Shown here: positions 500 to 47,395 of the stretch, one piece after another
How the letters are laid out: each line of letters begins with the position of its first letter
Numbering within the stretch: position 1 is the first letter of the stretch
Assembly: GCA_041751215.1 (NCBI GenBank)
Contig: JBGSXW010000005.1
Span: 3,664 to 67,663, forward strand
DNA length: 64,000 nt
Reading direction: 5' to 3'
From: Candidatus Saccharimonadales bacterium
GTDB taxonomy: Bacteria > Patescibacteriota > Saccharimonadia > Saccharimonadales > JBGSXW01
The notes under the pieces: model-generated
What the model was told of the DNA's origin: nothing
What the model saw: the letters and a program-made list of their open reading frames with translations, nothing else
Databases searched by the model: none
Position numbers and translations under genes: made by a program

Positions 500-3400
500 A
501 TGGCAAACCTTTTTGGAAAAAACAAACTACGTGATAAAGCACTGCGATTAGACACTGAGAGCCTAGAAGACAAAATCGCAATTGTTAAAACATGGCATCA
601 CGACTACCACAACGGTAGCCTCAAAAAAGATAAGGAAACCTCTCGCGAACAAGCCTACAATTCAGACTTTTTCATCAAGATTCTCGGCTACAAAGAAAAA
701 CCATCTGTTCCATATAGCTTAGAACCAAAGGCAACCACTGAAAAAGGTCAGTTGCCTGATGCGGTCTTAGGTTTCACAGATGTTACGAAAGGCATTGTTA
801 ATATTGCCGCTGCAGTTGAGCTAAAAGGTGCATCCGTTGAACTTGACCGGCCACAACGCCGCGAGGGTAACATGAGCCCTGTCCAGCAAGGGTTCAAGTA
901 TAAGAGCCAGTATCGCAATTGTCCGTTTGTGATTGTGAGTAATTTCTGGGAGTTTCGTCTCTATCACGATAACCAACTAGACTACGAGCTTTGGACACTC
1001 GACGATCTGATTGACCCTAAAGATGACTACATTAAGTTCAAAACCTTCTACACCCTTATCCATAGCGATAATCTCACAAGTCCGAAGGGTTCTAGCAAAA
1101 CAGAGGACTTATTGAGTGATGTTCGTCTTGAGCAGGAAGAAATCGGTAGAAAATTCTATAAAGTATACGGTCAGGCACGTCATGAACTATTGCGTGATAT
1201 TTATAAGAAAAATGAGCATATAAAAACTGATATTGATACCGGCATCGAAAAGGCACAAAAAATTATTGACCGTATTGTTTTTGCTTGTTTTGCCGAAGAT
1301 CGAGGTTTACTTCCTGACGATACATTGCAGCGAGTTATTAAGGCAGCAGATACTTCTACGTTTGGCGGGTCTTTATGGTCTACCTTTAAGGCGTTCTTTG
1401 AAGCGATTGACGCAGGTAGCGAGAAACTTGATATCCCAGATGGTTACAATGGCGGCCTATTTGCACATGACTCAGTGTTAAATAGTCTCCAGATTAGCGA
1501 TGATGCTTTGCGTTCCGTCGCTAATATTAGTAACTACAATTTCGCCGAAAGCCTGAGTGTTACCATTCTTGGTCATATCTTTGAACAATCCATAAGCGAC
1601 CTAGAGGAAATAAAAAATAAGGTTAATGAAAGTCACAGTCTCAATACATTGCAGCAGTCTCGACGTAAGAAGGATGGCATATTTTATACTCCTGACTACA
1701 TAGTTCGTTACATCGTAGATAACTCACTAGGCACTTACTTGCGTGAATACGAGGAGCGATTCAAGCAAGAGTTTAGCCTCAAAGGTGATATCAACGACAA
1801 AAATTATGAGAAACGCGAGAAGCAGGCTTACAGCAAGTACCAAGAATTTCTGCAAAATGTGAAGGTTGTTGACCCTGCTTGTGGTTCTGGTGCGTTTCTT
1901 GTCTACGTGTTTGACTACTTGCTAGCGGAAAACAAGCGGGTTGCGAGCATACTTGGTAACAACCTTTTCTCGAGTGAAGACTATATAAAGTCAATTCTAC
2001 AAAACAACATTTATGGTGTTGACCTAAATGAGGAGTCAGTTGAGATTACTAAGCTTTCACTATGGCTTAAGACTGCTCAAAAAGGTAAGAAACTTACTGC
2101 TCTTGATGACAATATCAAATGCGGTAATAGCTTGATTGACGATCCTACTATAGCTGGTAGCAAAGCCTTCAATTGGCAAGAACAATTTGCGGATATTTTC
2201 AAAGATGGTGGGTTTGACATAGTTGTAGGCAACCCACCGTATGGTGTTAGTTTTAGTGCCGAAGAAAAAGCATACTTGTCCAAGTTTGATAATCTTGTGT
2301 CAGATTACGAAGCCTATATTTATTTCATATCACTTGTAAAGAAACTAGTAAAACCTGCTGGGATGCTATCCTACATATTCCCAAATACTTTCCTATCGAC
2401 ACTGTACGGTAAGAAGTACCGAGAGCAGCTTTTCTCAAATTATTCAGTTTTTGAAATGGTTGATTTATCGCGTGACCCAACATTTAGTGATGCTAGCGTT
2501 CGCACAGTAATCGTTAGCATTAAAAATTCTTCTAAAAACTATAGTTCACAGCTTAATGTCATAGACATAAGTAAAAATATTGTCTCATTTGCAAAGTATA
2601 GTAAGGATGACTTGTTGAAGAATAGTGAGAATCTACTAGTCCTCTTTACGCGGAGTGACGAAGCCAGTGCGTTAGTACAAAAAATACTAAGACAATCTAA
2701 GCCACTCAAGGACTACTTTTCAATCTCTCAGGGCTTAATACCCTACGATAAGTATCGCGGGCATGATGAGCATACGATTAAAAATCGTATCTGGCATTCT
2801 GATACTAAGAAAGATGAAACATATCGTCGAGAGCTTAAGGGCGGTGATATTACTCGATACTCACTCAACTGGAATGGTGGCTTATGGATTAGCTATGGTG
2901 ATTGGCTTGCAGCACCTCGTGAACCTAAGTTTTTTAGAGAGCCACGAATACTTGTCCGGGAAATCACCGATGATCAGCTTTACTGTGTATTTACAGATGA
3001 GGAATATTACAATACGCCATCATTAATTAATTGTGTAGGTAATAAGGGCGTTGATCAAATGTCAATCCTCGCAATTATGAATTCAAAACTCCTAGGATGG
3101 TATCATAACAACACTTCACCGAAGGCTAACAAGGGATTATTTCCAAAAATTCTCGTCAATGACGTTCGCAACCTACCAATAGTTACACCTACCAACAGTA
3201 AAGAGCTGTCCAGTAGGGCTGCAGTTATGCTGAATTTAAATAACAAGCTCGAAAGTAATTCTCAACACTTTCAAAACCTCCTATCCAGCGAATTCAAGTT
3301 AGATAAGTGGCCCACCAAACTATCAAAGTGGTGGAGACTTGAATTTACTGACCTTGTGACAGCATTAAAACTTAAGTTGTCTCTTCAGCAAAAAGATGAG

Positions 3401-3541
3401 CTGTTGCAGCTTTTTGAAAAGTATCGCCTTGAATGCTCGGAGCTTGACTTAAAAATTAATCAATTCGACCGTGAAATCGACCAGCTTGTCTACGAACTTT
3501 ATGACCTCACTAATGAAGAAACTAACCTTATAGAAAAATAA
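500..3541 (+). CDS. type IIG restriction endonuclease / N6-adenine DNA methyltransferase (MmeI-like fused enzyme)
   Basis: 1013 aa. N-terminal PD-ExK-like motif (PDAVLGF...AAAVELKG). SAM motif I VVDPACGSGAFLV. Catalytic motif IV VVGNPPYG. Long C-terminal specificity-like region. Confidence 0.85.
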   Translation: MANLFGKNKLRDKALRLDTESLEDKIAIVKTWHHDYHNGSLKKDKETSREQAYNSDFFIKILGYKEKPSVPYSLEPKATTEKGQLPDAVLGFTDVTKGIVNIAAAVELKGASVELDRPQRREGNMSPVQQGFKYKSQYRNCPFVIVSNFWEFRLYHDNQLDYELWTLDDLIDPKDDYIKFKTFYTLIHSDNLTSPKGSSKTEDLLSDVRLEQEEIGRKFYKVYGQARHELLRDIYKKNEHIKTDIDTGIEKAQKIIDRIVFACFAEDRGLLPDDTLQRVIKAADTSTFGGSLWSTFKAFFEAIDAGSEKLDIPDGYNGGLFAHDSVLNSLQISDDALRSVANISNYNFAESLSVTILGHIFEQSISDLEEIKNKVNESHSLNTLQQSRRKKDGIFYTPDYIVRYIVDNSLGTYLREYEERFKQEFSLKGDINDKNYEKREKQAYSKYQEFLQNVKVVDPACGSGAFLVYVFDYLLAENKRVASILGNNLFSSEDYIKSILQNNIYGVDLNEESVEITKLSLWLKTAQKGKKLTALDDNIKCGNSLIDDPTIAGSKAFNWQEQFADIFKDGGFDIVVGNPPYGVSFSAEEKAYLSKFDNLVSDYEAYIYFISLVKKLVKPAGMLSYIFPNTFLSTLYGKKYREQLFSNYSVFEMVDLSRDPTFSDASVRTVIVSIKNSSKNYSSQLNVIDISKNIVSFAKYSKDDLLKNSENLLVLFTRSDEASALVQKILRQSKPLKDYFSISQGLIPYDKYRGHDEHTIKNRIWHSDTKKDETYRRELKGGDITRYSLNWNGGLWISYGDWLAAPREPKFFREPRILVREITDDQLYCVFTDEEYYNTPSLINCVGNKGVDQMSILAIMNSKLLGWYHNNTSPKANKGLFPKILVNDVRNLPIVTPTNSKELSSRAAVMLNLNNKLESNSQHFQNLLSSEFKLDKWPTKLSKWWRLEFTDLVTALKLKLSLQQKDELLQLFEKYRLECSELDLKINQFDREIDQLVYELYDLTNEETNLIEK

Positions 3542-4288: not shown

Positions 4289-4357
4289 GTAGCTCCTAAG
4301 CACAAGAATGTGTTAGGCTAGTCCTACATGATGTAAGGGTATACTCTCCTCGCTTTA

Positions 4358-4424
4358 CTATAGCTTTTTTGCGTTTTTATAGTATAGTTAGCGCATCAAC
4401 GCATGAGTTTTGTGTGTTGGGAAC
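4358..4424 (+). promoter_or_regulatory. conserved 5' module of GC-rich cassette 1 (putative -10 TATAGT at 4383-4388, then leader GCGCATCAACGC...TTGGGAAC)
   Basis: Aligns with 5630-5698 (CTATAG..TTTTT..TATA(G/A)T..GCG(C/T)ATCAA(C/T)GC..TTGTG..GTTGGGAAC). Confidence 0.5.
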
Positions 4425-4471
4425 TTTTCGGTGATGTCAGAAGTAATTTCGACGATTAGAAAGGTGTTACG

Positions 4472-4678
4472 GTGACGAACATCGGTAGAACACATGATAT
4501 CGGGCTCGTCTACGACGGCCCCGCCAACATGCCCGCCCCTCGACCGATCGAGGCCGCGGAAAACCGCTTCCTCGACGCAGTCGCAGTCCTGATGGTGATC
4601 GCCATACCCTTTGTGATCGCCATACCCTTTGTGTTCGCCTACCGCAAGTTCCGCGAGTTGATCTTCCGCAAGTCCTAG
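4472..4678 (+). CDS. small hydrophobic protein, GC-rich cassette 1
   Basis: GTG start 5 nt after AAAGGTG; 68 aa; contains a duplicated VIAIPF segment in a predicted TM helix. Confidence 0.45.
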   Translation: MTNIGRTHDIGLVYDGPANMPAPRPIEAAENRFLDAVAVLMVIAIPFVIAIPFVFAYRKFRELIFRKS

Positions 4679-4709
4679 CAGACGGTTCGCCGTCAGAAAG
4701 GAGCGTCCA

Positions 4710-5096
4710 ATGGAGACGCTGCGCAGCAATCAGATCAAGCTGAAGCCGCTCAGAACAACGGGCGACTATGTGTTGGCCGATGAGCTTGGCAACAACTTCT
4801 TCGGCCTGGGGACGATCGAGCAGGCTCTGACCTTTCGGGGTCAGCGCTTCCTCTACCGGGGCTGCACGATCACCATCATCGAGCATGATGAGATGCCCGG
4901 TGCCGTCTTGCCGGTAGTGAGAGTCCACTCCGCCCCCTGCAAGCAGTGCCAGGCCAAGGTTTCGACCATCTGCCATCTCGAGACCTCGTGGACCCTCGTC
5001 CAGCTCAGGCTCAAATACGAGATGTGGCGCCATCGTTGCAACTACGACCGCCTGGTCGTCGACGTCCTGCCGCCCATCAACGTCAAGCCCACCTAG
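4710..5096 (+). CDS. small CxxC protein, paralog 1 (GC-rich cassette 1)
   Basis: ATG preceded by AAGGAG. Shares the pattern GQxF..G...(~25 aa)..CxxC...(8 aa)..W with ORFs 5124-5501 and 5826-6578. Confidence 0.55.
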   Translation: METLRSNQIKLKPLRTTGDYVLADELGNNFFGLGTIEQALTFRGQRFLYRGCTITIIEHDEMPGAVLPVVRVHSAPCKQCQAKVSTICHLETSWTLVQLRLKYEMWRHRCNYDRLVVDVLPPINVKPT

Positions 5097-5123
5097 GTCA
5101 CCTACCACAAGCGAGGCGGTTCA

Positions 5124-5501
5124 ATGCCAAGCAACATCCAACTCCAACCCATCCGCAATCGAAGGGACCGGCGTCGAGCAGCTCAGTACGGCAATTCCCT
5201 GTTCGGGCTCGGTCTCCTTCCGGAAGAAGGCCTCACAAGCGGACAGAAGTTCACCTTCTGCGGCTATCTGATCCAGTACTTCGATGGTCGATTGGTTTCG
5301 CCGTCGAGAGATGGTCAATCCAACTTCTACCGAAGCAAGGTCACGTGCTTCTGCCCGTGCTGTGGCGAGGAGATGAGCGAACTGTTCAACTTCGACACCG
5401 AATGGACCGAGGTTCATCAGCACATGTGCGGAGAGCGTGACGCCCACCAGTGTGACGCGCCCGAGCTGGCTGTACCGGATGCGAACTTCGCTTCCGTCTG
5501 A
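5124..5501 (+). CDS. small CxxC/zinc-ribbon-like protein, paralog 2 (GC-rich cassette 1)
   Basis: SD-like GAGGCGG upstream; motifs SGQKFTFCGY, CPCCGEEM, TEW, and a second Cys pair MCGERDAHQC. Confidence 0.55.
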   Translation: MPSNIQLQPIRNRRDRRRAAQYGNSLFGLGLLPEEGLTSGQKFTFCGYLIQYFDGRLVSPSRDGQSNFYRSKVTCFCPCCGEEMSELFNFDTEWTEVHQHMCGERDAHQCDAPELAVPDANFASV

Positions 5502-5558
5502 CATCATCCACCGTGCGCCGGCAGGAACCACTCTTTCCCAAGAGACTCCTGCCGGCGC
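5499..5558 (+). repeat. conserved 3' module of cassette 1 (TGA-CATCATCCACC + 40-nt nested hairpin CGGCAGGAACCACTCTTTCCCAAGAGACTCCTGCCGGCGC)
   Basis: The 40-nt core 5519-5558 is identical to 6599-6638. Confidence 0.8.
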
Positions 5559-5575
5559 CATCAACTTTGTTTAAG

Positions 5576-5597
5576 CCCTCAGATTGAGGGATTTTTT
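5576..5597 (+). terminator. intrinsic terminator candidate
   Basis: CCCTC-AGATT-GAGGG followed by ATTTTTT. Confidence 0.5.
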
Positions 5598-5629
5598 ATG
5601 CTCAAAATCAACAAAAGCACTACCGTAAA

Positions 5630-5698
5630 GCTATAGACTTTTTACTGTTAATCTTGTATAATCTGCGTATCAATGCGTCTTGTGACGGGTTGGGAACG
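5630..5698 (+). promoter_or_regulatory. conserved 5' module of GC-rich cassette 2 (extended -10 TGTATAAT at 5655-5662, then leader GCGTATCAATGCG...TTGGGAAC)
   Basis: Homologous to 4358-4424. Confidence 0.5.
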
Positions 5699-5825
5699 TT
5701 AAGATGATGGTCAATTCCCCTAAGTTTAATTCGAGTACTCGAATGTGGCTTTGAGGTTGCACTAAACATAGGCAGCTTCTGAGCCATATTCGAGCAACAC
5801 TCGTGACAACAAGGGAGATAACAAC

Positions 5826-6578
5826 ATGTTCAAGTTCATCAGCAAGCTGTTCAAGAAGAAGTCGGAGGAATCGGCCTACAAGATCTGGGGTCGCCACGAG
5901 CTGCCGCTCCCCAAGGGCCCAAACAGCACCTGGACGGACCGCCTGATCGGTCAGGAGTTCGTGATCGACGGCTACAACTTCGTGATCGTCGGGGAATCGA
6001 ACGCCCACGAGGGGATCTCGGCCCGTCTCGAACTTCCGTGCAAATCCTGTGGCCAGCCACATCGCTTGTGGCTCAGCGTCACCGCGACCTGGGATGATGT
6101 GCTGATGACGATCTTGAGCTTCGCCGAGAAGAGCTGCGACGACTGCAACCAGGTGCTCAACGGTGATATCGACCGCGTCGAAGAGGAGATGGCGAAGAAC
6201 GTCGAGGAGTGGAAAGGCATCGAGAAAGCTCTCGTGGCTTCCGGCCTCGACCTCGATTCCCTCGACCTCTTGGTCAACGACTCCGGCGAAGTCGACTGCG
6301 TCAGCCAGTTCCTCTGGCTCAAGTCTGGCTGGGTACCGCTCTGGCTGTACAGCCGTCGTGGTTTCCCAAGGGATCTGAGCAAGATAAACGAGCTCAAGCA
6401 CATGCTCGGCGTCAACGCCCACATCGAGGGAAACCTGATCTGCTTCTCGCCGATCCATGTGATGCGACCCAGTCGGATCGAAGAGTTCAACGAAGAGCTG
6501 GCAGAACTCCGCAAGCACCAGAACACCATGGAAGCCCACCGCCTCGCCCGCGCGTCGCGCAACACGAGCTCCATCTGA
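5826..6578 (+). CDS. CxxC/zinc-ribbon-like protein, paralog 3 with a C-terminal extension (GC-rich cassette 2)
   Basis: ATG preceded by AGGGAG; motifs IGQEFVIDGY, CKSCGQ, TATW, CDDC; 250 aa. Confidence 0.55.
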   Translation: MFKFISKLFKKKSEESAYKIWGRHELPLPKGPNSTWTDRLIGQEFVIDGYNFVIVGESNAHEGISARLELPCKSCGQPHRLWLSVTATWDDVLMTILSFAEKSCDDCNQVLNGDIDRVEEEMAKNVEEWKGIEKALVASGLDLDSLDLLVNDSGEVDCVSQFLWLKSGWVPLWLYSRRGFPRDLSKINELKHMLGVNAHIEGNLICFSPIHVMRPSRIEEFNEELAELRKHQNTMEAHRLARASRNTSSI

Positions 6579-6638
6579 CCATCATCCACCCCTTGCGTCG
6601 GCAGGAACCACTCTTTCCCAAGAGACTCCTGCCGGCGC
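6576..6638 (+). repeat. conserved 3' module of cassette 2
   Basis: TGACCATCATCCACC plus the same 40-nt hairpin as 5519-5558, followed by a T-run. Confidence 0.8.
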
Positions 6639-6664
6639 ATTTTTCTTTTCATCGCCCTTTTCCA

Positions 6665-6854
6665 CGCATCAGCTAAAACTCCTGAATTTGGGAGGGAGAA
6701 ACCCGGCGTAGCGAGGACTGTCCGCCAGCCGGCGGACGGGTTCCGCAGCCGCCCGAGTCCTTGGGTGAGCCAAGCTCATGAGAGTTTTTACAGCAGCGGG
6801 AAAGTTTTGAGCCACTTTTTAAAAAGTGGCGACCACCCCCGTCGTGGAAACGAC
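6665..6854 (-). repeat. element A, copy 1 (subfamily A1)
   Basis: Near-identical over long stretches to 47225-47395, and reverse-complement homologous to 19134-19311 and 55449-55636. Contains the palindrome GCCACTTTTTAAAAAGTGGC (6811-6830). Confidence 0.8.
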
Positions 6855-6879
6855 AAGCAAATTTAAGTTCTTAAAACGC

Positions 6880-7296
6880 CTAGCTAGCTAAGAGCCCAAA
6901 AACCAGGCCCATCATCGCATAACTTGTAACCACAAACAGCGCGTCAATAACTAGTAGTTTCTTGCGTCGCTTACCGAAGCCGTACATGGTAACTAGCGTT
7001 GTAACGGCGATACCCGAGCCGATAAAGGCTGCGTCAAACATCCCGTCAACCACTCCTTTAACGCCAATTAGTACTAACCCCAGAACTGTTGCACTAACAA
7101 ACGCCATCACCACCATTACGGCCATCATGGTCATGTTGGTTGACTCTAAGTCCTTCTTTTTTAAGCCAGAGGCTTTCATCCACTCGTTGCCGGCTACTGC
7201 TGGGCTATACCAAAGCATTCCCCAAAGAATGCTAACTACAGCTGCCACGACAACAGCCGACCAATTTAGGTTTTCTAGTGCTAATGAGAAGTCCAT
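6880..7296 (-). CDS. DUF1761-like membrane protein
   Basis: 138 aa, four hydrophobic helices; N-terminus NWSAVVVAAVVSILWGMLWYSP..W is paralogous to ORF 32005-32421. Confidence 0.55.
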   Translation of the reverse strand: MDFSLALENLNWSAVVVAAVVSILWGMLWYSPAVAGNEWMKASGLKKKDLESTNMTMMAVMVVMAFVSATVLGLVLIGVKGVVDGMFDAAFIGSGIAVTTLVTMYGFGKRRKKLLVIDALFVVTSYAMMGLVFGLLAS

Positions 7297-7465
7297 AGCT
7301 CCCCTCCTTTGTAATTACTTAAGCTTATTCTAACACTGGCGCAATTAAACCCCAATTGACTCTGTGGTTGCTTGTGCTATAACTGAACAGTTCGCTTTAG
7401 GGGTGAACGAGGTGTACCAGAGGCCTCAGAAGCAAATACTCTGGTAGTACGTTGAGGAGGAAATC

Positions 7466-7816
7466 TTGGGCGTCATAACGGGTAACCGGGTTGGCCGCGA
7501 GGAACGAACTGCAAGTAGTGCTCGGCGAATCGATGAGGGCATGCTACCTGACGGACACGCCGTGGTGCTGATCCTGGGCAGTACGACCTACATCTGCTCA
7601 CACTGCCGCTACGCAGTCGTCATCGGTGAGTACACCCACAAAACGTCACCGGCCGGTACAGACCTGCTCGCTTTCAAAGACGAAGCTGGTGAGCACGACG
7701 AGCGGATCTGCGGCAAGCATTTCACCATGTACGACGATCGCCGCGACCAGGCCAAGCGCGCGCCGCTACCACAGTGGTTCGACCGCCTCGGATCAGTGAT
7801 CTACGACGAAGACTGA
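7466..7816 (+). CDS. hypothetical GC-rich Cys-containing protein
   Basis: TTG start 5 nt after GAGGAGG; CSHC...CGKH motifs; GC-richer than the flanks. Confidence 0.45.
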   Translation: MGVITGNRVGREERTASSARRIDEGMLPDGHAVVLILGSTTYICSHCRYAVVIGEYTHKTSPAGTDLLAFKDEAGEHDERICGKHFTMYDDRRDQAKRAPLPQWFDRLGSVIYDED

Positions 7817-7906
7817 CGGCTTTGGGTCGGGTGCGAGCGTAAGCTCACAAAGCACCCGGCCCTAGCCAGTCAATCCGAATCTCCTCCTCAACTTTTTTTC
7901 TTGAAT

Positions 7907-12987: not shown

Positions 12988-13902
12988 ATGAACTTAAGTA
13001 ACGTTATCGTCGACTTTTTAGAGCATTTAGAAATCGAGCAAAATCGCTCGCAAATGACAATTGCCAATTACCACCACTACCTTATGCGTTTAGTTGAGTT
13101 TAGTGACGATGTTGATATAAGCAAGCTAGACGCCGAAGTAATACGTCGATGGCGCCTTTGGCTCAATCGATACAAAGATGCTCACGGGACGGAACTATCT
13201 AAGACTACTCAGAACTACCACTTAATTGCGCTGCGCAGTTTGCTTCGCTACTGCATGAAAAGAGATATCAAAACCCTCAGCCCAGATAAGATTGAGTTAG
13301 CCAAAGTCAGCCGAAAACAGGTTACATTCCTAAGTATCGAAGAAGTTGAACGACTGCTAGACCAGCCTGATCTTAGTAAGCTAACAGGGATGCGAGACCG
13401 TGCAATTTTAGAACTACTCTTCTGCGGGGGCCTCCGAGTGTCAGAACTTGTTAACCTAAATATCGATCACATTAACCTAAAACGATTAGAGTTTACGGTC
13501 CGCGGAAAAGGCCAAAAAGACCGCCCGATCTTTATTAGTGAACAAGCCGGTGAAGCAATTGGACGCTATCTTCAGGCCCGTCAAGATAACTTTCGACCCC
13601 TGTTTATCCACGCTGGCGGAACGCAAAGTGCGTTAGACGAAGGCGAATACACAAGGTTGAGTACAAGGAGTGTTCAAAGACTAGTTAGTCGCTACGCTAA
13701 GCTTGCTGGAATTACGAAAAAAGTCAGCCCACATACTTTGCGTCACTCGTTTGCCACCGACCTATTGATGAACGGGGCCGACCTGCGCAGCGTGCAGTCT
13801 TTGCTGGGACACAGCAATATTGGCACCACCCAGATTTACACTCACATTACCGACCCTCACCTGCGCGACGTGCACAAGAAATTCCATGGTAAAAGCCGAT
13901 AG
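12988..13902 (+). CDS. tyrosine site-specific recombinase XerC/XerD family
   Basis: C-terminal HTLRHSFATDLL..GADLRSVQSLLGHSNIGTTQIYTH. Confidence 0.85.
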   Translation: MNLSNVIVDFLEHLEIEQNRSQMTIANYHHYLMRLVEFSDDVDISKLDAEVIRRWRLWLNRYKDAHGTELSKTTQNYHLIALRSLLRYCMKRDIKTLSPDKIELAKVSRKQVTFLSIEEVERLLDQPDLSKLTGMRDRAILELLFCGGLRVSELVNLNIDHINLKRLEFTVRGKGQKDRPIFISEQAGEAIGRYLQARQDNFRPLFIHAGGTQSALDEGEYTRLSTRSVQRLVSRYAKLAGITKKVSPHTLRHSFATDLLMNGADLRSVQSLLGHSNIGTTQIYTHITDPHLRDVHKKFHGKSR

Positions 13903-26327: not shown

Positions 26328-29072
26328 TTAATATATTGGCGGTAACTCTTTTATCAACGAAATGTTCGGTAAATCTGCATCCTCACTGTCACCGTCGAGC
26401 TGGCCACCTTGCGCTCCAAGAGGCGCTAGCAATAGCTCGCCGGGGTCAAAGCTGATAACTTCGCTGGCCCACAGTAACTGCTGGGCTGGAGTCGCGCTGT
26501 CACCGATCCTAAACAGGCCATTGGTAGTACCGCCGGTTCGCATCAAGAACAGCGACTTTGCGAAAATCTGCCCTTCCATCACTAAGCTTATTGGGCAAAT
26601 CGTAGTAGACAGATTAAACCGTGGCGTATACGGCGCAGCGGTTGTGGCACAGGTGTAAATATTTCCGCCGTTGCCGGGTTCGTTAGGCAAAGCAATTAGC
26701 CGAGCATCGACTCGATCAACAGTTTCGGTTACCTTAATATCTCCGCCTCTGGTAATGATGCTGATCTGAGGAAAGAACAGCTGACCGCCCGATTCGTAAA
26801 TCTCGTTGTTTAAGATGTTGTTCCTGATTATCACGTCTTGCTCAGTAATAATGGTGATCCTCCGAGGGTTGGAGTATGAGCCTGGAGCCGGCCGGGTGAT
26901 CACAAGCGGTCCGCTGCCGGTGTGCTTATACAGTCTGTGTCCGTGTCCGCCAGGAGGCGTAGCTAGCACGAAGCTGTTGGTGTTAAACACGTGCGTTTCG
27001 CTGGGACTAAAGTAGGCTTCGGCGGCTTTGTAGTAGTCGTCAATACAGCGTGGTGTCGAAATAACCGAGTGTTGGGTTTTATCTTGGCCATCACTGTAGT
27101 AGTAGCCACGGTGGATAAGATTTCCGCCGCCTAGCAAGAAGCCTTCGCCTGGGACAGAGTTGGCAAACATTAAGCCGATTGCGTTAAGCAGGTTGTAGGG
27201 TGGATTCAGCCCAAGATCCATTTGCCTGGTGTTGGCGGAGGCAATTCTAGTGTTGCCGAGCCCATAAATTCCGTACTCTCCAGATGAACCTTGAGTGTTG
27301 GGAAGATTATTGCCATAAATGTGTCCGTCGTTGGTTGGGTCGCCGTCACTCAGGTTTCCGTAAGTCACCCCTGACATAGCCGAAGCGTCACAGCGCCCTA
27401 GAGCATCTGACCCATGTTGACTGGCAAAAACAGCCCCAGCCCATAGATCAGCACCTTGAACTTTAAAGTAAGGGCGATTGACTACAATGAAACAACGCCG
27501 TGTGCCAGAATTTGTTACCGAACTTGCACCGGTAGATGGCGGGCCTGTGTTGCCAGTATGCGGAGCCACGATTGCTCTAAAGCAGTATTCTTCCCCCGGG
27601 ATAACATTATTAGGGACGTCGTATGAGACCTCTATCCAGCCACGACCCGAACCATACCCCCCGGTGCCCGGTGAGTCCGTACCATTACAGTTGCTTGCGG
27701 TACCAGATCCCGCCCCTGGAACACCAGCTGGGTGTCTAATTTCCCATCTTGAATGGCCAGCATGGTCCGGGTTTGGACTGTTGGCCACAATAATATTGTC
27801 GTTTGGCGTAGATGGATTACCTTCATAGCTGTTATAGGTTGAATTTATGCGCGTAAATCGACGACTGTTATCAAGCGTGCCATCTCCGTTAACTATAGAT
27901 GGCGCTTCGATCCTAATTGCTAACGGATTAGCCGCCGATGCATGGTAAATGCCGTCGCCAATGTTACATACACTGGCCCTAACAGTAACGACATCTCCCG
28001 GTCCTACCTCTGTTGGCTGCCCATCCGGTACACCGTGCTTAACGACATGGTCGTATTCTGGCGGATCGCCTACACACTCGGTGTAAAAGTTTGTTCCGTG
28101 ATAGCCGTTTGGCAGGTAAAACTGCACTCCATTGTTGCCGTCCACGTCGTACCAGATCCACTCGTATTTATGGTTTGCTTGGGGCGTAAAGTTAAATTGG
28201 CCCTCGGCATCATTGCCACCCATCGGCGCATCTCCTGGAACTGTAGCAAGCCTAGTGTTGGTAGTTCGATTCCAGAGCTCAAACCTAATGTTCAAGTCTT
28301 GAGGAATGCCTGCAGCTCCCCGGTCGGCATCATACCAACGAAGGGTTGTCGAGCTCCCAACAGAGCAGGGCGCGCCGAAACGTATATGAAAGTTATCTTC
28401 GCCGGAGGGATTAACTCTGTTCTGCATAGCCACACGGTTAGCATTTGAAGTAGCTCCAGTACCAGCAAAGCCTACATACCCCCCAGGAGCATGCACCTTA
28501 AATCCGTTGTTGCGCCCTCCCCACTCGCCCGAAGCATTTGCATACGTAACACGTAGTAGCGTACTTGAACTATTCGTGGTTGGATCATAAGTAAACCTAG
28601 CAGCCCCCACGGTAACGGTGCGCCATAACATGTGCCAATCCTTTCCTGCAGTGTCGGTGGTAGCTGGATTGCTGCCGTTTAATCGAGAAAAGGTGTAGTT
28701 GACCACATTTCTGGCATGGCCGCTTCTGCACTGTGTATTATTGTCTTGTTCGAACCAACCCAGAATAGGGTTTGCAGCAAAGGTGTCTACTGCGCCAGCT
28801 TTTGCCCTACAGAGAGCGCCATCAAATATCTCAACGTCTCTGCTTCCGCTAGTTATCTCTCCTGGGAAGGTGACGATAACACTGGCGGATGGCGCATCAA
28901 TATTCGTCCCTGGAGGGTCGTGTATGTAGGTTGCGAGGTAAATCTGACTGCTGTGCAGGTCGCTATCGGGCAGCAGGCTGGGTGTTTGGGCTGAGGCGTC
29001 TTGGGCCAAGATTACACTAGAAGCCACGAGTAGAAAGGTGATTGCCAATAATCGATGGGCTTTTCTTTTCAT
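26328..29072 (-). CDS. large secreted protein of unknown function (signal peptide)
   Basis: 914 aa; N-terminus KRKAHRLLAITFLLVASSVILAQDASAQ; G/N/T/S-rich; directly upstream of pilM on the same strand. Confidence 0.6.
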   Translation of the reverse strand: MKRKAHRLLAITFLLVASSVILAQDASAQTPSLLPDSDLHSSQIYLATYIHDPPGTNIDAPSASVIVTFPGEITSGSRDVEIFDGALCRAKAGAVDTFAANPILGWFEQDNNTQCRSGHARNVVNYTFSRLNGSNPATTDTAGKDWHMLWRTVTVGAARFTYDPTTNSSSTLLRVTYANASGEWGGRNNGFKVHAPGGYVGFAGTGATSNANRVAMQNRVNPSGEDNFHIRFGAPCSVGSSTTLRWYDADRGAAGIPQDLNIRFELWNRTTNTRLATVPGDAPMGGNDAEGQFNFTPQANHKYEWIWYDVDGNNGVQFYLPNGYHGTNFYTECVGDPPEYDHVVKHGVPDGQPTEVGPGDVVTVRASVCNIGDGIYHASAANPLAIRIEAPSIVNGDGTLDNSRRFTRINSTYNSYEGNPSTPNDNIIVANSPNPDHAGHSRWEIRHPAGVPGAGSGTASNCNGTDSPGTGGYGSGRGWIEVSYDVPNNVIPGEEYCFRAIVAPHTGNTGPPSTGASSVTNSGTRRCFIVVNRPYFKVQGADLWAGAVFASQHGSDALGRCDASAMSGVTYGNLSDGDPTNDGHIYGNNLPNTQGSSGEYGIYGLGNTRIASANTRQMDLGLNPPYNLLNAIGLMFANSVPGEGFLLGGGNLIHRGYYYSDGQDKTQHSVISTPRCIDDYYKAAEAYFSPSETHVFNTNSFVLATPPGGHGHRLYKHTGSGPLVITRPAPGSYSNPRRITIITEQDVIIRNNILNNEIYESGGQLFFPQISIITRGGDIKVTETVDRVDARLIALPNEPGNGGNIYTCATTAAPYTPRFNLSTTICPISLVMEGQIFAKSLFLMRTGGTTNGLFRIGDSATPAQQLLWASEVISFDPGELLLAPLGAQGGQLDGDSEDADLPNISLIKELPPIY

Positions 29073-29641
29073 TGACCCAACCTCTGTATCGAAAGCTTAA
29101 TTAGCTGAACGGCTTCGACTGCCTCGTCACCTTGTTGCTCTGCTGTTTTTAAGGCCTTGTTGTACCAAGACAAAGCTAACTGATCTTGATTCAACTGCTC
29201 GTACAGCTGAGCCAGATGAAATTCTCCATGCAGCGTAAGGTCTTGATCGTTTGGCATTGAACCGAGAGCTGTCTCTAAGCACTCGGTGTCCTTAGCCTCT
29301 ACGCAGACGGTTATCTTTGCCCGCACTGCAGGTATCTTCTCTTCGTCTGCTGACTGCTGGTAAATAGCCTCCAGCTGAGAAATTGCTTCATCGGTAGATA
29401 GCTCTTTACTTTTATGGGCAGCTACAACGTCCGTAATAGGATGAGCTATGGTAACAGGCCCACCTTCTACCAATTCTATGGATTCATTTAAACTCTCGGT
29501 ATTAGAGTCTGTTCTAGTTATTAGCCAAACAACAAAAACCACACCCAACACCAGCAACCCCAATATCAATAGGGTGCTTCTTTTGTTGCTAAGCAAGGCT
29601 ATAGTTTTAATCTTCATTTCCCTCAAAAAGCTTATGCCCAA
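29069..29641 (-). CDS. membrane-anchored TPR-like protein
   Basis: N-terminal TM; C-terminal helical repeat (HLAQLYEQLNQDQLALSWYNKALKTAE); 4-nt overlap with the downstream gene. Confidence 0.45.
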   Translation of the reverse strand: MGISFLREMKIKTIALLSNKRSTLLILGLLVLGVVFVVWLITRTDSNTESLNESIELVEGGPVTIAHPITDVVAAHKSKELSTDEAISQLEAIYQQSADEEKIPAVRAKITVCVEAKDTECLETALGSMPNDQDLTLHGEFHLAQLYEQLNQDQLALSWYNKALKTAEQQGDEAVEAVQLIKLSIQRLGQ

Positions 29642-29689
29642 ATTGTAGATGTCCTCTAGGGTAAAAGCAAATTAAAGTGCTTATGTGTA

Positions 29690-29718
29690 TTGACATTTTA
29701 AGCATTAGAGTGTATAGT
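29690..29718 (+). promoter_or_regulatory. sigma70-like promoter (TTGACA-17 nt-TATAGT)
   Basis: Consensus -35 at 29690-29695 and -10 at 29713-29718, about 175 nt upstream of the GC-rich surface-protein gene. Confidence 0.6.
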
Positions 29719-29892
29719 GTTGCTCACTGTGATTTTGAGGTGGAAATCTCGTTAATCGCGGCACTTTTACAAACTGGGCTATCCAGGGAACAATGACTGC
29801 AAGATCAAGATTGTGGCCATCGTCCCCTGGATAACCATGGGAAAAACCGGCGCCTAACCAAGCGCCCCGAACCTCAGAAAGAGGTGATTTTG

Positions 29893-30594
29893 ATGAAGCA
29901 TCCCCGCTTCCTCATCGGAGCGCTCGCCATCATGGCGCTGTCGCTCTTCGCAACCCCGGCCTTCGCGGCCACCGCAACCATCAGCCCCGCCATGGGGCCG
30001 GCTGGCACCATCGTCAACATCAGCGGTGGCGAGTGCCTGCCGACGGAGGAGTTCCCGGTCCATCCTCGGGTCGGTTTCCTCGTCCGCGACGACGACGGCA
30101 ACGAGATCCACTTCGACCTCAACGTCGATGTCGACGAAGAAGGCATGTGGAGCTTCAGCTACGAGATCCCTCTGGTGGATACGGAGTACCTGGAGTTCCT
30201 CGCGTTCTGCAGCGGTGGAAACGGTACGGATCCGGCTCAACTCGTCGACTACGACAGCCTGATCTTCACCTACGCCGAGATCGGCCCGCCTCCGACCACG
30301 GAACCCGAGCCGACCACGACCACCACCGAGGCACCGCCGACGACCGAGCAGCCGACCACCACGGTCGAGCAGCCCGAACCCACGACGGCCCCGACGGTCG
30401 CACCCACGGTCATCACCAACCCCGAGTTCACCTCGCCTCCCGGCGGCGGTGTCCAGACGGACGGTGGTGTCCCTGATGAGGCTGCGCACGAGCAGAACAA
30501 CGCGCTCGTGTTCGGGATCATGGCCGGGTTCTTCGCCCTCATGCTGTTCCTGACCAGGAACAAGAAGGCCAAGAAGGTCAACAGCACGGAGTAG
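29893..30594 (+). CDS. GC-rich secreted surface protein: signal peptide, Pro/Thr-rich linker, C-terminal hydrophobic helix + basic tail
   Basis: ATG after AGAGGTG; signal peptide MKHPRFLIGALAIMALSLFATPAFA; PTTEPEPTTTTTEAPPTTEQPTTT; C-terminus ALVFGIMAGFFALMLFLTRNKKAKK. Confidence 0.7.
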   Translation: MKHPRFLIGALAIMALSLFATPAFAATATISPAMGPAGTIVNISGGECLPTEEFPVHPRVGFLVRDDDGNEIHFDLNVDVDEEGMWSFSYEIPLVDTEYLEFLAFCSGGNGTDPAQLVDYDSLIFTYAEIGPPPTTEPEPTTTTTEAPPTTEQPTTTVEQPEPTTAPTVAPTVITNPEFTSPPGGGVQTDGGVPDEAAHEQNNALVFGIMAGFFALMLFLTRNKKAKKVNSTE

Positions 30595-30804
30595 TTCTTC
30601 CCAGCAATGCCCAGCAAGCGAGCGGTCCGGGTGGGTCATTTGATTACAGACTCAACATCTGAACATCATCTGATCCACCCGGCCCTCGCAACACACTTTT
30701 CTAGGATAGATACAGATCTCACATCTGATTAACAGATGAGAAACCTATACCTGAACTAGAAACAACAGAGGTGACACTTTATTTCCACCCCTGTTATAAT
30801 GGTA

Positions 30805-30833
30805 TTGCTTTTTATTGACTAATTTGGTATAAT
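30805..30833 (+). promoter_or_regulatory. promoter candidate (TTGCTT-17 nt-TATAAT with TG extension)
   Basis: AT-rich block upstream of a ~250-nt leader preceding the sortase gene. Confidence 0.45.
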
Positions 30834-31091
30834 ATACAAGTTCAGTTGGGAGACTCTTAACTGATGAAGGATCAACATAATGATCCGACCTTACCAAGCT
30901 TTGGCAGCAAATTGTCTAGGGATTCTTACCCGGAACTACACCCCGCCCTCCCTGGGAGCACACCATCCAATCTATTCCATCGTACTCCTCATTCGCTTAA
31001 ATAATCGTGAGAATCATCTGAGAACTTTCCGCGTAGGACTCCCTAGACAAGGGACATTCGTCATCTGGCGAATTACAACAAAGGAGCAACA

Positions 31092-31835
31092 ATGCGCTTC
31101 CCCAAGCACATCCTGTTTCTGGTCTGGTTGACACTCGTGTTTTCCCTGACCAGCGGGTCGGTGCAGCAGGAGCGCTTCATGCTCCCTCCGCAACCCACCC
31201 AGGCGGCCGCAGAAGCACCTGCGACCACCACAAGCACCACCGAAAGGCGGGATCGTGTACCAACGTCCCAGGCGTCGACCAGACCCAGCAACCCGGCAAC
31301 AACAGCTCCAGCGCAGCCGACAACGACAGCGCCGGAAACCACGCCGGAACCCGCGGGAATCCCCCGCGTGGTGGTCGAATCGATTGGGGTGGATGAACCG
31401 CTCGTCGTAGGCAACTACTTCGACGAGAACGGCAACATCTCCCCGCCGTGGCAGACAGCCAACCTCTACGGGGGCGGCTCCATGCCTGGACAGGTTGGCA
31501 CGAGCCTCATCGCAGGCCACGTTTCGTCATCGACCTATGGACCCGATGTGTTCTACAACCTCGGGAACATCCAGATCGGCGACATCGTACAGGTCAGCGA
31601 TGGCACCACCAACTTCACCTATCAGGTGACGCTCATCCGCGTTCAGGACAAGCGCCTGCTCGCAACCAGCGAAGCCCCTGGTGAAGATCCCGACGCCGTC
31701 ATTCAGTGGTCTGACATGGAACGCGTGACCGATTGGTCCGTGCTCTACCTGATCACCTGTGGTGGCGAGTTCGGAAATGTCCGCCCGGGTAGTTTCGATT
31801 CGAACATCATCGTTCGAGCCGAGATCGTCCCCTGA
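31092..31835 (+). CDS. sortase family transpeptidase (class F-like), GC-rich
   Basis: AAGGAG SD; N-terminal TM; catalytic His context LIAGHVS; catalytic Cys motif LYLITCGG; conserved Arg near the C-terminus (IIVRAE). Confidence 0.8.
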   Translation: MRFPKHILFLVWLTLVFSLTSGSVQQERFMLPPQPTQAAAEAPATTTSTTERRDRVPTSQASTRPSNPATTAPAQPTTTAPETTPEPAGIPRVVVESIGVDEPLVVGNYFDENGNISPPWQTANLYGGGSMPGQVGTSLIAGHVSSSTYGPDVFYNLGNIQIGDIVQVSDGTTNFTYQVTLIRVQDKRLLATSEAPGEDPDAVIQWSDMERVTDWSVLYLITCGGEFGNVRPGSFDSNIIVRAEIVP

Positions 31836-32004
31836 CCCCGCTCAGCCAGAGCAAAACCAGGGCTGGAGGCCGCATGAGGAGAAGGTTGATCGTACTTAAC
31901 GATCCCCTTTACACTCCCTTGCGCGCCTCCAGTCCTAATCACACCCTTTGATTATTCGAACAGTTGGCCTAGCAAGGCTTAAGCCAAGAGTTCGAGAAAT
32001 TAAG

Positions 32005-32472: not shown

Positions 32473-32559
32473 CTAGTCCTTTAGCAAGTCGTCGATCCAG
32501 TTTGGATCTAGATCGTTCGAGTCGAGAATAGTTGTGATGGTTTCTGGTTGTTTTTGCAT
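32473..32559 (-). CDS. candidate 28-aa acidic micro-protein
   Basis: MQKQPETITTILDSNDLDPNWIDDLLKD; sits behind a copy of the duplicated promoter box; below the ORF-track cutoff. Confidence 0.25.
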   Translation of the reverse strand: MQKQPETITTILDSNDLDPNWIDDLLKD

Positions 32560-32583
32560 TTTTGTTTTAACTTTAGTTTTTAT

Positions 32584-32612
32584 ATACTAGCATACTTCTT
32601 GTGTTTTGGCAA
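32584..32612 (-). promoter_or_regulatory. promoter candidate TTGCCA-17 nt-TAGTAT within a 26-nt repeat
   Basis: 26 nt TAGCATACTTCTTGTGTTTTGGCAAG at 32588-32613, identical to 33176-33201. Confidence 0.45.
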
Positions 32613-32659
32613 GAGCCTGCTAGCGACTCTTAAGCCACGGCTCAGAGCGCAGGAATAGT

Positions 32660-33133: not shown

Positions 33134-33171
33134 TGTTGTTGAGCTTGTTTGTATCTTATATTTACAAACAT

Positions 33172-33200
33172 ACATTAGCATACTTCTTGTGTTTTGGCAA
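33172..33200 (-). promoter_or_regulatory. promoter candidate TTGCCA-17 nt-TAATGT within a 26-nt repeat
   Basis: Second copy of the box described at 32584-32612. Confidence 0.45.
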
Positions 33201-33220
33201 GGTTGGTAGTTTAGTGGTGA

Positions 33221-47224: not shown

Positions 47225-47395
47225 CGCATCAGCTAAAACTCCTGAATTTGTGAGGGAGAAACCCGGCGTAGCGAGGACTGTCCGCCAGTTGGCGGACGGA
47301 CTCCGCAGCTACCCGAGTTTTGACTGAGCAAATTCAAGGATTGTTTTAGCTGCAGCGTGAAAGGTTTTGGGGCACCTTTTTTAAAAAGGTGTCGT
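47225..47395 (-). repeat. element A, copy 2 (subfamily A1)
   Basis: CGCATCAGCTAAAACTCCTGAATTTG.GAGGGAGAAACCCGGCGTAGCGAGGACTGTCCGCCAG..GGCGGACGG matches 6665-6740 almost base for base; palindrome at 47371-47393. Confidence 0.85.

Follow-up and report, generated by a model that had tools for sequence, protein, structure and literature searches.

What is a GC-rich gene for a surface protein doing beside the type IV pilus genes of a Candidatus Saccharimonadales bacterium, and what becomes of its product? The gene lies in a 64,000-nucleotide stretch of assembly GCA_041751215.1 (contig JBGSXW010000005.1; the whole stretch is called the window here), and a preliminary description made from the letters alone had pointed to its consensus promoter, its hairpin-rich leader, and a product resembling a sortase substrate. 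The next gene downstream encodes a sortase, and we consider it probable, with the reservations set out below, that the two form a surface-display module derived from Actinomycetota, in which a sortase-anchored substrate and a class-F-like sortase are expressed from two hairpin-capped units that protect their messages.

A surface protein gene paired with a sortase gene

The pair is located between the divergently transcribed p190/p914/pilM (type IV pilus) genes and ychF. Its coding features are as follows, with confidence in the AlphaFold2 model given as the predicted local distance difference test (pLDDT).

29893 to 30594, + strand: gene for the surface protein (the putative substrate), a coding sequence of 233 amino acids (aa)
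29893 to 29967, + strand: signal peptide MKHPRFLIGALAIMALSLFATPAFA, then A, recognized by inspection from its basic n-region, hydrophobic core, and AFA-A cleavage site
29974 to 30273, + strand: immunoglobulin (Ig)-like beta-sandwich, residues 28 to 127, eight strands, block-mean pLDDT mostly 85 to 95 (one block 82)
30286 to 30417, + strand: Pro/Thr-rich stalk, residues 132 to 175, low pLDDT and no secondary structure in the model
30436 to 30474, + strand: candidate sorting motif PPGGGVQTDGGVP, with cleavage predicted after Thr189
30502 to 30576, + strand: hydrophobic helix ALVFGIMAGFFALMLFLT, then the basic tail RNKKAKK; helix 201 to 230 in the model
31092 to 31835, + strand: sortase gene, 247 aa, class-F-like

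The signal peptide, Pro/Thr-rich stalk, hydrophobic helix, and KKAKK tail reported in the preliminary description are all seen in the translation and in the AlphaFold2 model, in which the signal-peptide region forms a helix at residues 5 to 18; the equivalent region is conserved across 17 homologs. The Ig-like domain is of the disulfide type, and its Cys48 and Cys106 are invariant in the family. The protein has no match in Pfam or NCBIfam, and Foldseek with the Ig-like domain returns only generic macroglobulin and Ig domains. A minus-strand open reading frame (ORF) at 29854 to 30639 was rejected as a shadow of the GC-rich gene.

The sortase-substrate reading rests on the gene pair, because the adjacent gene encodes a sortase (Pfam PF04203, 6.6e-16, 58.6 bits against a cutoff of 26.6), and the substrate-like architecture recognized earlier is strengthened by this neighbor. 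The sortase gene starts 497 nt downstream of the substrate gene and has a GC content at third codon positions (GC3) of 0.74. Its product has weak matches to the solved sortases 4d70 and 5go5/5go6, and His143, Cys223, and Arg242 (IAGH143, TC223, VR242) are invariant in the alignment with P0023, its closest relative. In the word-index search P0023 is 42% identical and nothing else exceeds 37%, such that no sortase from outside the Saccharimonadales is more than 37% identical; the named relatives are from Acidimicrobiales, Ilumatobacteraceae, and Kitasatospora. Scans for the sortase clade in genome_contigs, metagenome_contigs, and viral_contigs were all empty.

An exhaustive HMMER search of 1.84 billion representative proteins yields 21 relatives of the surface protein, only one of which (P0003, 36 to 39% identity) has the same full architecture; in it, PPGGGIQTDGGLP precedes a helix and a charged tail. 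A word-index search of 5.8 billion protein clusters with the surface protein returned only the window's own protein, and a profile search with the substrate C terminus found nothing. P0003 and P0023 are encoded by neighboring genes on contigs L003 and L002, which overlap at 99.9% and represent one 5-kb locus, with the gene order p914-like, p194, leader, substrate, hairpin, promoter, sortase, hairpin, one small gene, and ychF. The YchF proteins are 84% identical (76% for the DNA), and we therefore treat L003 and L002 as a sister genome.

The preliminary description had found no canonical LPXTG, and we agree: a pattern scan of the substrate for LPXTG, LAXTG, NPXTG, SPXTG, and LPXTA found none, and TIGR01167 has no match at E values up to 10. 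The candidate motif is G-V-Q-T-D, and the choice of VQTDGG as the nearest motif was a good one. It is the conserved core of PPGGG[VI]QTDGG[VL]P, which is shared with P0003, the only full-length homolog, and apart from PPGGGVQTDGGVP the C-terminal halves of the two proteins have no conserved block. The motif also aligns with [VI][QD]TG signals encoded beside related sortases. These are from six distinct loci near more distant sortase relatives (the outgroup; L014 carries the same protein as L013), and at all six the gene beside the related sortase ends in [VI][QDG]TG, then a helix and basic tail:

L013: PNRIDTGEG
L015: PNRIDTGGG
L016: SLIQTGGGG
L017, Kitasatospora: PPVGGVGTGVGG (GGVGTG)
L018, Acidimicrobiales: PAGGVQTGFGG
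L019, Ilumatobacteraceae, in a DUF4397 protein: PAGGVQTGYG

Alignment of PPGGG[VI]QTDGG with the six partner C termini by hhalign gives a probability of 68% (E = 5e-5, 22 columns). The hidden Markov model (HMM) for GVDTG_CTERM, NF058571, scores the Kitasatospora partner at 33.6 bits against a cutoff of 29, and the others at 16 to 26 bits. The VQT-D of the window looks like a divergent variant (T-D for T-G) of this recently curated signal, and the six loci would link NF058571 signals to class F sortases; a search of the literature found no mention of GVDTG in the sorting-signal sense.

With these components, the Sec pathway would export the substrate, and its C-terminal helix would keep it in the membrane. 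The neighboring sortase would then cut after Thr189 (VQT|D) and join the substrate to peptidoglycan, with the Ig-like domain displayed on its stalk.

Several points weigh against this explanation. The best NCBIfam class for the sortase, class_F_sortase NF033748, reaches 70.2 bits, under its cutoff of 166 bits (class E, 31.5 bits). The residue after Thr is Asp, where Gly is expected, in both Saccharimonadales proteins. Neither TIGR01167 LPXTG_anchor nor NF058571 detects the window C terminus, even at an E value of 10, and at its 29-bit cutoff NF058571 matches neither the window protein nor P0003, whether at full length or with the C terminus alone. These last points, together with the absence of LPXTG and the rather long distance, 14 residues, from Thr189 to the helix, lend themselves to an alternative in which the protein simply stays in the membrane by its helix, PPGGGVQTDGG is a hinge or glycosylation site, and the sortase acts on other proteins. 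We regard this as unlikely, given that the gene pair is kept in the sister genome, that related sortases are paired with [VI][QD]TG signals at all six outgroup loci examined, that the motif is the one block conserved in an otherwise divergent C-terminal half, and that no other window protein was found to have a sorting-signal architecture.

Two groups of relatives differ in arrangement. Acidimicrobiia-type homologs of the Ig-like domain (P0002, P0007, P0009 to P0012, P0014, P0015, and P0017 to P0019; DNA at L009 5001 to 5504 and L011 5001 to 5546) are proteins of about 165 aa in which a signal peptide is followed by the domain and a Pro/Thr linker, the stop codon coming directly after P-x-[FYM]-T-G. 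They are without the hydrophobic helix; the stop is genuine on the DNA, nothing helix-like follows in frame, and there is no adjacent sortase gene, although the motif at their very C terminus is sortase-like. In the actinomycete-like loci L013 (315 to 2955) and L015 (1972 to 4585), there is a 4-nt overlap between the substrate and sortase genes, and the pair directly follows a gene whose product, of about 470 aa, contains a sigma-70 region 2 domain, which may be a regulatory link of the extracytoplasmic function (ECF) type for class F sortase modules.

Promoters, leader RNA, and predicted transcript ends

Each gene of the proposed module would be a separate transcription unit with its own promoter of native, sigma-70 type, and each message would have a 5'-proximal hairpin with a sequence resembling a Shine-Dalgarno (SD) sequence at its start and a very stable hairpin at its end. 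The predicted elements are as follows.

29642 to 29670, - strand: divergent promoter of p190/p914, -35 TTGCTT (29670 to 29665), 17-nt spacer, -10 TACAAT (29647 to 29642)
29690 to 29718, + strand: promoter P1 of the substrate gene, TTGACA-17-TATAGT, 11/12 match to consensus
29725 to 29892, + strand: predicted 5' untranslated region (UTR) of about 168 nt, its start taken from the -10 element
29727 to 29761, + strand: H1, hairpin near the predicted 5' end, -14.6 kcal/mol, z = -3.6
29762 to 29779, + strand: conserved linker (GCGG)CACUUUnACAAnCUGGG between H1 and H2, 13/16 aligned positions identical
29780 to 29833, + strand: H2, long hairpin, base UAUCCAGGGAAC / CGUCCCCUGGAUA invariant in L003
29849 to 29866, + strand: H3, GGCGC-N8-GCGCC, stem invariant in L003, where the loop is 7 nt
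29871 to 29885, + strand: H4, anti-SD/SD hairpin ACCUC-AGAAA-GAGGU, -5.3 kcal/mol, with the SD at 29881 to 29886
30618 to 30689, + strand: long hairpin after the substrate stop codon, -43.9 kcal/mol, z = -7.06, no adjoining U-tract
30805 to 30833, + strand: promoter P2 of the sortase gene, TTGCTT-17-TATAAT, hexamers identical in L003, spacer different
30842 to 30864, + strand: hairpin near the predicted 5' end of the sortase leader, with GGGAG; stem CAGUU/AACUG, in L003 GAUUG/CAAUC (covarying)
31859 to 31936, + strand: long hairpin after the sortase stop codon, -52.7 kcal/mol, z = -8.2; L002 counterpart z = -6.2

All statements on conservation and covariation rest on two sequences, the window and the sister locus (L003/L002), and the covariation is to be read as anecdotal, which limits what can be claimed for the RNA. 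The P1 promoter is present as first described, with 12/12 hexamer positions identical in L003 and 8 of the 17 spacer bases changed. Three further elements were overlooked at that time and are all present: the sortase gene, hairpin H1, and the divergent p190/p914 promoter, whose hexamers are likewise identical in L003 with a different spacer. The intergenic DNA thus contains two back-to-back promoters with all four hexamers identical and both spacers different, and the conservation upstream of the P1 -35 element is there because of the divergent promoter. Only two sites in the 64-kb window, both strands included, match the consensus at 11/12 or better, and both are upstream of the two GC-rich genes; with 1.0 expected from shuffling, the count alone is not significant, and the second site (30771 to 30800) has a -35 element that is not conserved in L003.

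The predicted leader (29725 to 29900) folds at -62.2 kcal/mol with z = -3.96, none of 200 shuffles folding as well, and its L003 counterpart gives z = -4.82. The two leaders are identical at 106 of 164 aligned positions (65%, versus 41% at four-fold sites of YchF), and the conservation is blocky, with invariant blocks beside freely varying ones. The three leader hairpins originally named (H2, H3, and H4) are where they had been placed and can all form in L003. Only 3 nt separate H1 from the predicted 5' end; the 5' arm of H1 has the invariant, SD-like sequence UGAGGUGGAA, and the hairpin stays paired in L003 through two double-compensatory and three one-sided changes. The H2 arms, TATCCAGGG (29780 to 29788) and CCCTGGATA (29825 to 29833), lie around ACAAT...ATTGT and form the second-longest inverted repeat in the whole window, that of the post-stop hairpin being the sixth; the H2 interior cannot be aligned with L003 and yet is paired in both (about 20 bp here and 25 bp in L003). 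H3 shows no covariation, and its structure is neither supported nor contradicted. Reading H3 as a minus-strand terminator was rejected, as the T-run is missing in L003 and there is no gene upstream on that strand.

H4 ends 7 nt before the ATG at 29893, and the anti-SD is kept in a shifted register in L003, where the counterpart is CCACCU-UGG-AGGUGG (-7.1 kcal/mol). The earlier proposal that the leader can sequester its SD therefore stands as a predicted pairing, but the hairpin is weak and such pairing is common in the window, with a predicted SD occlusion of at least 0.9 at 8 of 47 SD-bearing starts. In silico, the probability that the SD core of the window leader is paired stays at 0.94 to 1.0 from 20 to 45°C, and an RNA thermometer is unlikely because the predicted SD pairing barely changes over that range. 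A leader peptide was rejected: the small ORFs of the two leaders are not conserved, and there is no conserved upstream ORF between them. The comparison with Rfam recommended in the preliminary description found no RNA family for the leader; an Rfam 15 scan of the whole window at gathering scores matches only a transfer RNA, and the best hit of a permissive scan of 29500 to 31200 (E up to 10) is a microRNA model, which scores 26.7 bits where its cutoff is 93. Pattern scans for H2 in metagenome_contigs and viral_contigs were empty, and blastn found no further copies of the leader or module in the window or the collected loci.

The long hairpin reported after the substrate stop codon is also present. 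Its outer stem, GCGAG.GGUC / GNCC.CUCGC, is invariant, and the inner stem differs in L003 but is still paired. It does not have the form of an intrinsic terminator, the nearest U run (UUUU) being 8 nt past the stem, and the terminator scan flagged an inner sub-hairpin only; the structure is probably the 3' end of the transcript or a stabilizer of it. Under the favored explanation, the end structures would most likely shield the messages from RNase J and PNPase, both of which are encoded in the window, and the weak H4 hairpin would merely damp translation initiation. This proposal leans on analogy with Bacillus, in which 5' stem-loops and STAB-SD sequences act as message stabilizers, and here too there are points that tell against it: it is an analogy, and simple stabilizers would not need as much sequence specificity as the invariant base of H2 and the invariant linker show. 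The second point suggests a binding partner for the H2 base and linker.

Compared with its counterpart in the sister genome, the sortase leader has about 170 nt more (window 30870 to 31060). An imperfect inverted repeat of 24 nt (30912 to 30935 and 31027 to 31050, 87.5% complementarity) flanks this additional DNA, which may be a small insertion resembling a miniature inverted-repeat transposable element (MITE); there is no other copy of it in the window.

The apparent need for a binding partner is the reason to keep a second view of the leader in play, namely, that it is a riboregulator, in which the anti-SD (ACCUC or CCACCU) pairs either with the true SD or, in competition, with the invariant SD-like 5' arm UGAGGUGG, and a factor binding the H2 base or the linker switches translation. 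The long-range helix that this requires, of the anti-SD with the SD-like 5' arm, is proposed by RNAalifold and includes two double-compensatory pairs, the long-range and local folds are nearly isoenergetic in L003 (-85.4 versus -84.3 kcal/mol), and invariant blocks beside freely varying ones would suit a regulator. In the window leader, however, the local fold is favored by 6 kcal/mol, and the same column changes also fit local H1. With no Rfam family, no conserved upstream ORF, no identified ligand or protein, near-constant SD pairing from 20 to 45°C, and two sequences to compare, we give the riboregulator a minor share of the probability. A bolder combination is less likely again: the epibiont would have taken an Actinomycetota sortase-substrate pair as a host-contact or adhesion module and gated it by a lineage-specific leader RNA, with the 5' SD mimic and the SD competing for the anti-SD and the H2 base and linker as sensor, and the sortase would read a new T|D variant of GVxTG.

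It is also conceivable that the hairpins act as DNA, with H2 an operator palindrome, or with H2 and the 3' hairpins as remnants of mobile or recombination elements, and no role in RNA. The perfect 9-bp H2 arms of invariant sequence would suit this, as would the variability of the ychF-pilus locus among relatives and the presence of a tyrosine recombinase gene (12988 to 13902). We consider it improbable nonetheless: the H2 arms are 36 nt apart in one genome and 44 nt in the other with the interior still paired, so that a folded single strand fits better than a dimer-binding site; no other copies are found in the window, the collected loci, or three public collections; and there are no attC cores. 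The recombinase, which is Xer-like and the only one of its kind in the window, is 17 kb from the module.

Age and origin of the gene pair

The gene body is far more GC-rich than its leader and promoter, as first described, with GC rising from 0.31 to 0.43 in the promoter to 0.60 to 0.74 in the substrate gene, the jump coming at the start codon. Its GC3 is 0.86, versus 0.43 to 0.55 in the pilus, FtsK, RNase J, PNPase, and YchF genes; the sister copies of the module genes have GC3 values of 0.72 and 0.68. The preliminary description had named a closest homolog of the same lineage and same GC content as the finding that would speak against it, and about half of this is so: P0003 is from the same lineage and locus and is equally GC-rich. 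Because the closest full-length homolog is of this kind, the GC contrast is not a mark of recent transfer.

Recent transfer into the window genome was rejected: the sister genome has the module in a syntenic position, and synonymous sites of the module are saturated, about as much as those of YchF between the two Saccharimonadales. The comparisons at four-fold sites are as follows.

Substrate: identity 0.35, chance 0.33
Sortase: identity 0.48, chance 0.29
YchF: identity 0.41, chance 0.26

An assembly chimera was rejected too, as the junctions are the same in an independent Logan assembly (L001, 100% identical to the window), the L001 sortase sequence is also recorded from an NCBI contig, and the sister locus is in both ENA and NCBI assemblies.

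The module is known only from the window genome and the one sister Saccharimonadales, at the same locus. The nearest relatives of the window's PilM among species-representative genomes are from five Candidatus Saccharimonadales/Saccharibacteria metagenome-assembled genomes (53 to 66% identity); PilM is present in all five, p914 and YchF in most, and the module and leader in none. Relatives outside the order are GC-rich: the other relatives of the Ig-like domain are proteins of about 165 aa on contigs of 71 to 73% GC, one of them annotated as Acidimicrobiales, and the outgroup sortase loci have 64 to 75% GC. The GC contrast and the homologs fit an old acquisition from high-GC Actinomycetota. 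In the simplest history, the common ancestor of both genomes would have acquired the module once, from a very GC-rich actinomycete, and passed it on vertically, with fast evolution of the proteins and incomplete amelioration. The donor, suggested by composition and weak homology only, was possibly of the class Acidimicrobiia, and the module would then have diverged quickly, as did the neighboring surface proteins (identities between window and sister are 23% for p190, 31% for p914, 39% for the substrate, and 47% for the sortase). We note that a GC3 of 0.86 is somewhat high for a gene with saturated synonymous sites, which sits awkwardly with this history.

That the substrate gene is a recently captured cassette with the 3' module of the GC-rich ORFs at 4.4 to 7.8 kb, whose layout of AT-rich promoter, leader, GC3-rich ORF, and hairpin it shares, is highly improbable, given a 3' match of 14/15 nt with E = 6.1, leaders that have no sequence in common, and the synteny and saturation that make the module old. 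The likeness that the preliminary description had seen between the post-stop hairpin and the 3' modules of the cassettes (5499 and 6576) is that same 14/15-nt match and is at chance level. An integron cassette was rejected in turn: there are no attC core sites (GTTRRRY, RYYYAAC) by the hairpin, there is no integron integrase, and the gene has its own promoter.

The 4300 to 7830 region has further GC3-rich ORFs, at 4710 to 5096, 5124 to 5501, 5826 to 6578, and about 7466 to 7817, with GC3 measured at 0.69 to 0.85 for the first three. Pfam and NCBIfam have no match to the GC3-rich ORFs of this region. The ORF groups are preceded by AT-rich promoter-like DNA and a leader and followed by a hairpin, and the 3' modules at about 5499 to 5560 and 6576 to 6640 are nearly identical to each other. 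The arrangement suggests a recurring way of housing foreign-looking genes in the window genome.

The window as a whole is bacterial chromosome, with a type IV pilus operon, FtsK, RNase J, PNPase, Fpg, YchF, and an MmeI-like restriction-modification enzyme. The last is an MmeI/Eco57I-like type IIG enzyme of 1,013 aa at 500 to 3541 (+ strand), with a GC content of 0.40, below that of the rest of the window. Next to the module, p190 is listed as follows.

29069 to 29641, - strand: p190, the neighbor of the module

Its listed TTG start at 29641 overlaps its own predicted -10 element, and the start is more likely the ATG at 29617, which is preceded by GAGGG; the distance of 24 nt from TACAAT to ATG is also found in L003. 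The p914 and p190 products (26328 to 29641, - strand; L003 2 to 1800) retain only 31% and 23% identity between genomes with 84% identical YchF, and judged by this divergence the surface proteins at the locus evolve very fast. In the sister genome a promoter-like block, TTTGTTTnAACTTTAGTTTTTATATAnTAGCATACTT..., is directly upstream of ychF (L002 1773 to 1903); the TTTGTTTnAACTTTAGTTTTTATATAnTAGCATACTT block occurs twice in the window (32491 to 32615 and 33170 to 33201), with p173 and p296 separating the block from ychF. Neither p173, p296, nor the DUF1761 gene was found in L002. Gene content between the pilus operon and ychF differs among all relatives examined, and the interval looks like a variable surface-protein locus. 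Elsewhere, a similar GC-rich hairpin, GCGAGGACTGTCCGCCA...GGCGGACGG, is present at two distant sites (6710 to 6745 and 47271 to 47306) and may be a small repeated element.

Relation to known systems and significance

The closest parallel is with the GVDTG-CTERM (NF058571) proteins and class F sortases of Actinomycetota, which have the same P-x-G-G-[VI]-[QDG]-T-x-G-G followed by a helix and basic tail, a Pro/Thr-rich spacer before the signal, and likewise a neighboring class-F-type sortase gene. The window protein differs in its Asp for Gly after Thr, the longer spacer before the helix, its escape from HMM detection, and its Saccharimonadales host. Class F sortases (Cutibacterium acnes SrtF; SrtF1-4 of Streptomyces/Actinoplanes) have an N-terminal membrane anchor with a Pro/Thr linker and a His-Cys-Arg triad, as in the window sortase, which however scores 70 bits against the class cutoff of 166. 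C. acnes SrtF is reported to use LPXTG (PMC8225981), and the class is still described as having unknown physiological roles (PMC13251363). The substrate screen in one class F sortase paper considered LPXTG-like patterns only and would miss [VI][QD]TG signals.

Pairing of one sortase with one or a few substrates is also seen for SrtB-IsdC (NPQTN) of Staphylococcus aureus and CbpA (NVQTG) of Clostridioides difficile, with motifs of the form x-[PV]-Q-T-x; NPQTN illustrates that the residue after Thr need not be Gly, as in the window motif. These SrtB systems differ in having class B sortases and in belonging to Firmicutes. The NVQTG motif of CbpA was a proposal, and it is unproven, as purified C. 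difficile SrtB did not cleave NVQTG (PMC4155245).

Like the 5' mRNA stabilizers of Gram-positive bacteria (5' stem-loops and the STAB-SD of Bacillus thuringiensis cryIIIA), the window leader has a hairpin no more than 3 nt from its predicted 5' end; as with STAB-SD, an SD-like GAGGUGG is far from the start codon, in a genome that encodes RNase J. A second hairpin pairs the true SD, as in SD-occluding leader hairpins. What has no counterpart in the 5' stabilizers is the added long hairpin with its invariant base and the invariant linker. To our knowledge, almost no cis-regulatory RNA has been described in the phylum of the Saccharimonadales, and a conserved structured 5' UTR seen in two sequences is a lead, not a result.

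Two published reports describe gene acquisition by Saccharibacteria, for example of an arginine deiminase system (PMC8764695), and transfer between bacteria of the candidate phyla radiation and their hosts in activated sludge (PMC10031880). The module resembles such acquisitions in being lineage restricted and of foreign composition, in a reduced epibiont genome, with its nearest outside relatives in the known-host phylum. It differs in that its cargo is a cell-surface anchoring module and that it is old and common to two divergent genomes.

The new elements here would be the T-D sorting variant, a host-phylum origin in an epibiont, and an uncatalogued conserved leader, within the limits of two sequences. 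The locus bears on class F sortases by showing their pairing with neighbors that carry [VI][QD]TG signals, and it adds a T-D signal variant that current HMMs miss. Saccharibacteria live attached to Actinomycetota, and we know of little about this attachment beyond type IV pili. An actinobacterial-type display module, long kept next to pilus genes in a fast-evolving surface locus, is a concrete candidate for a role in host interaction.

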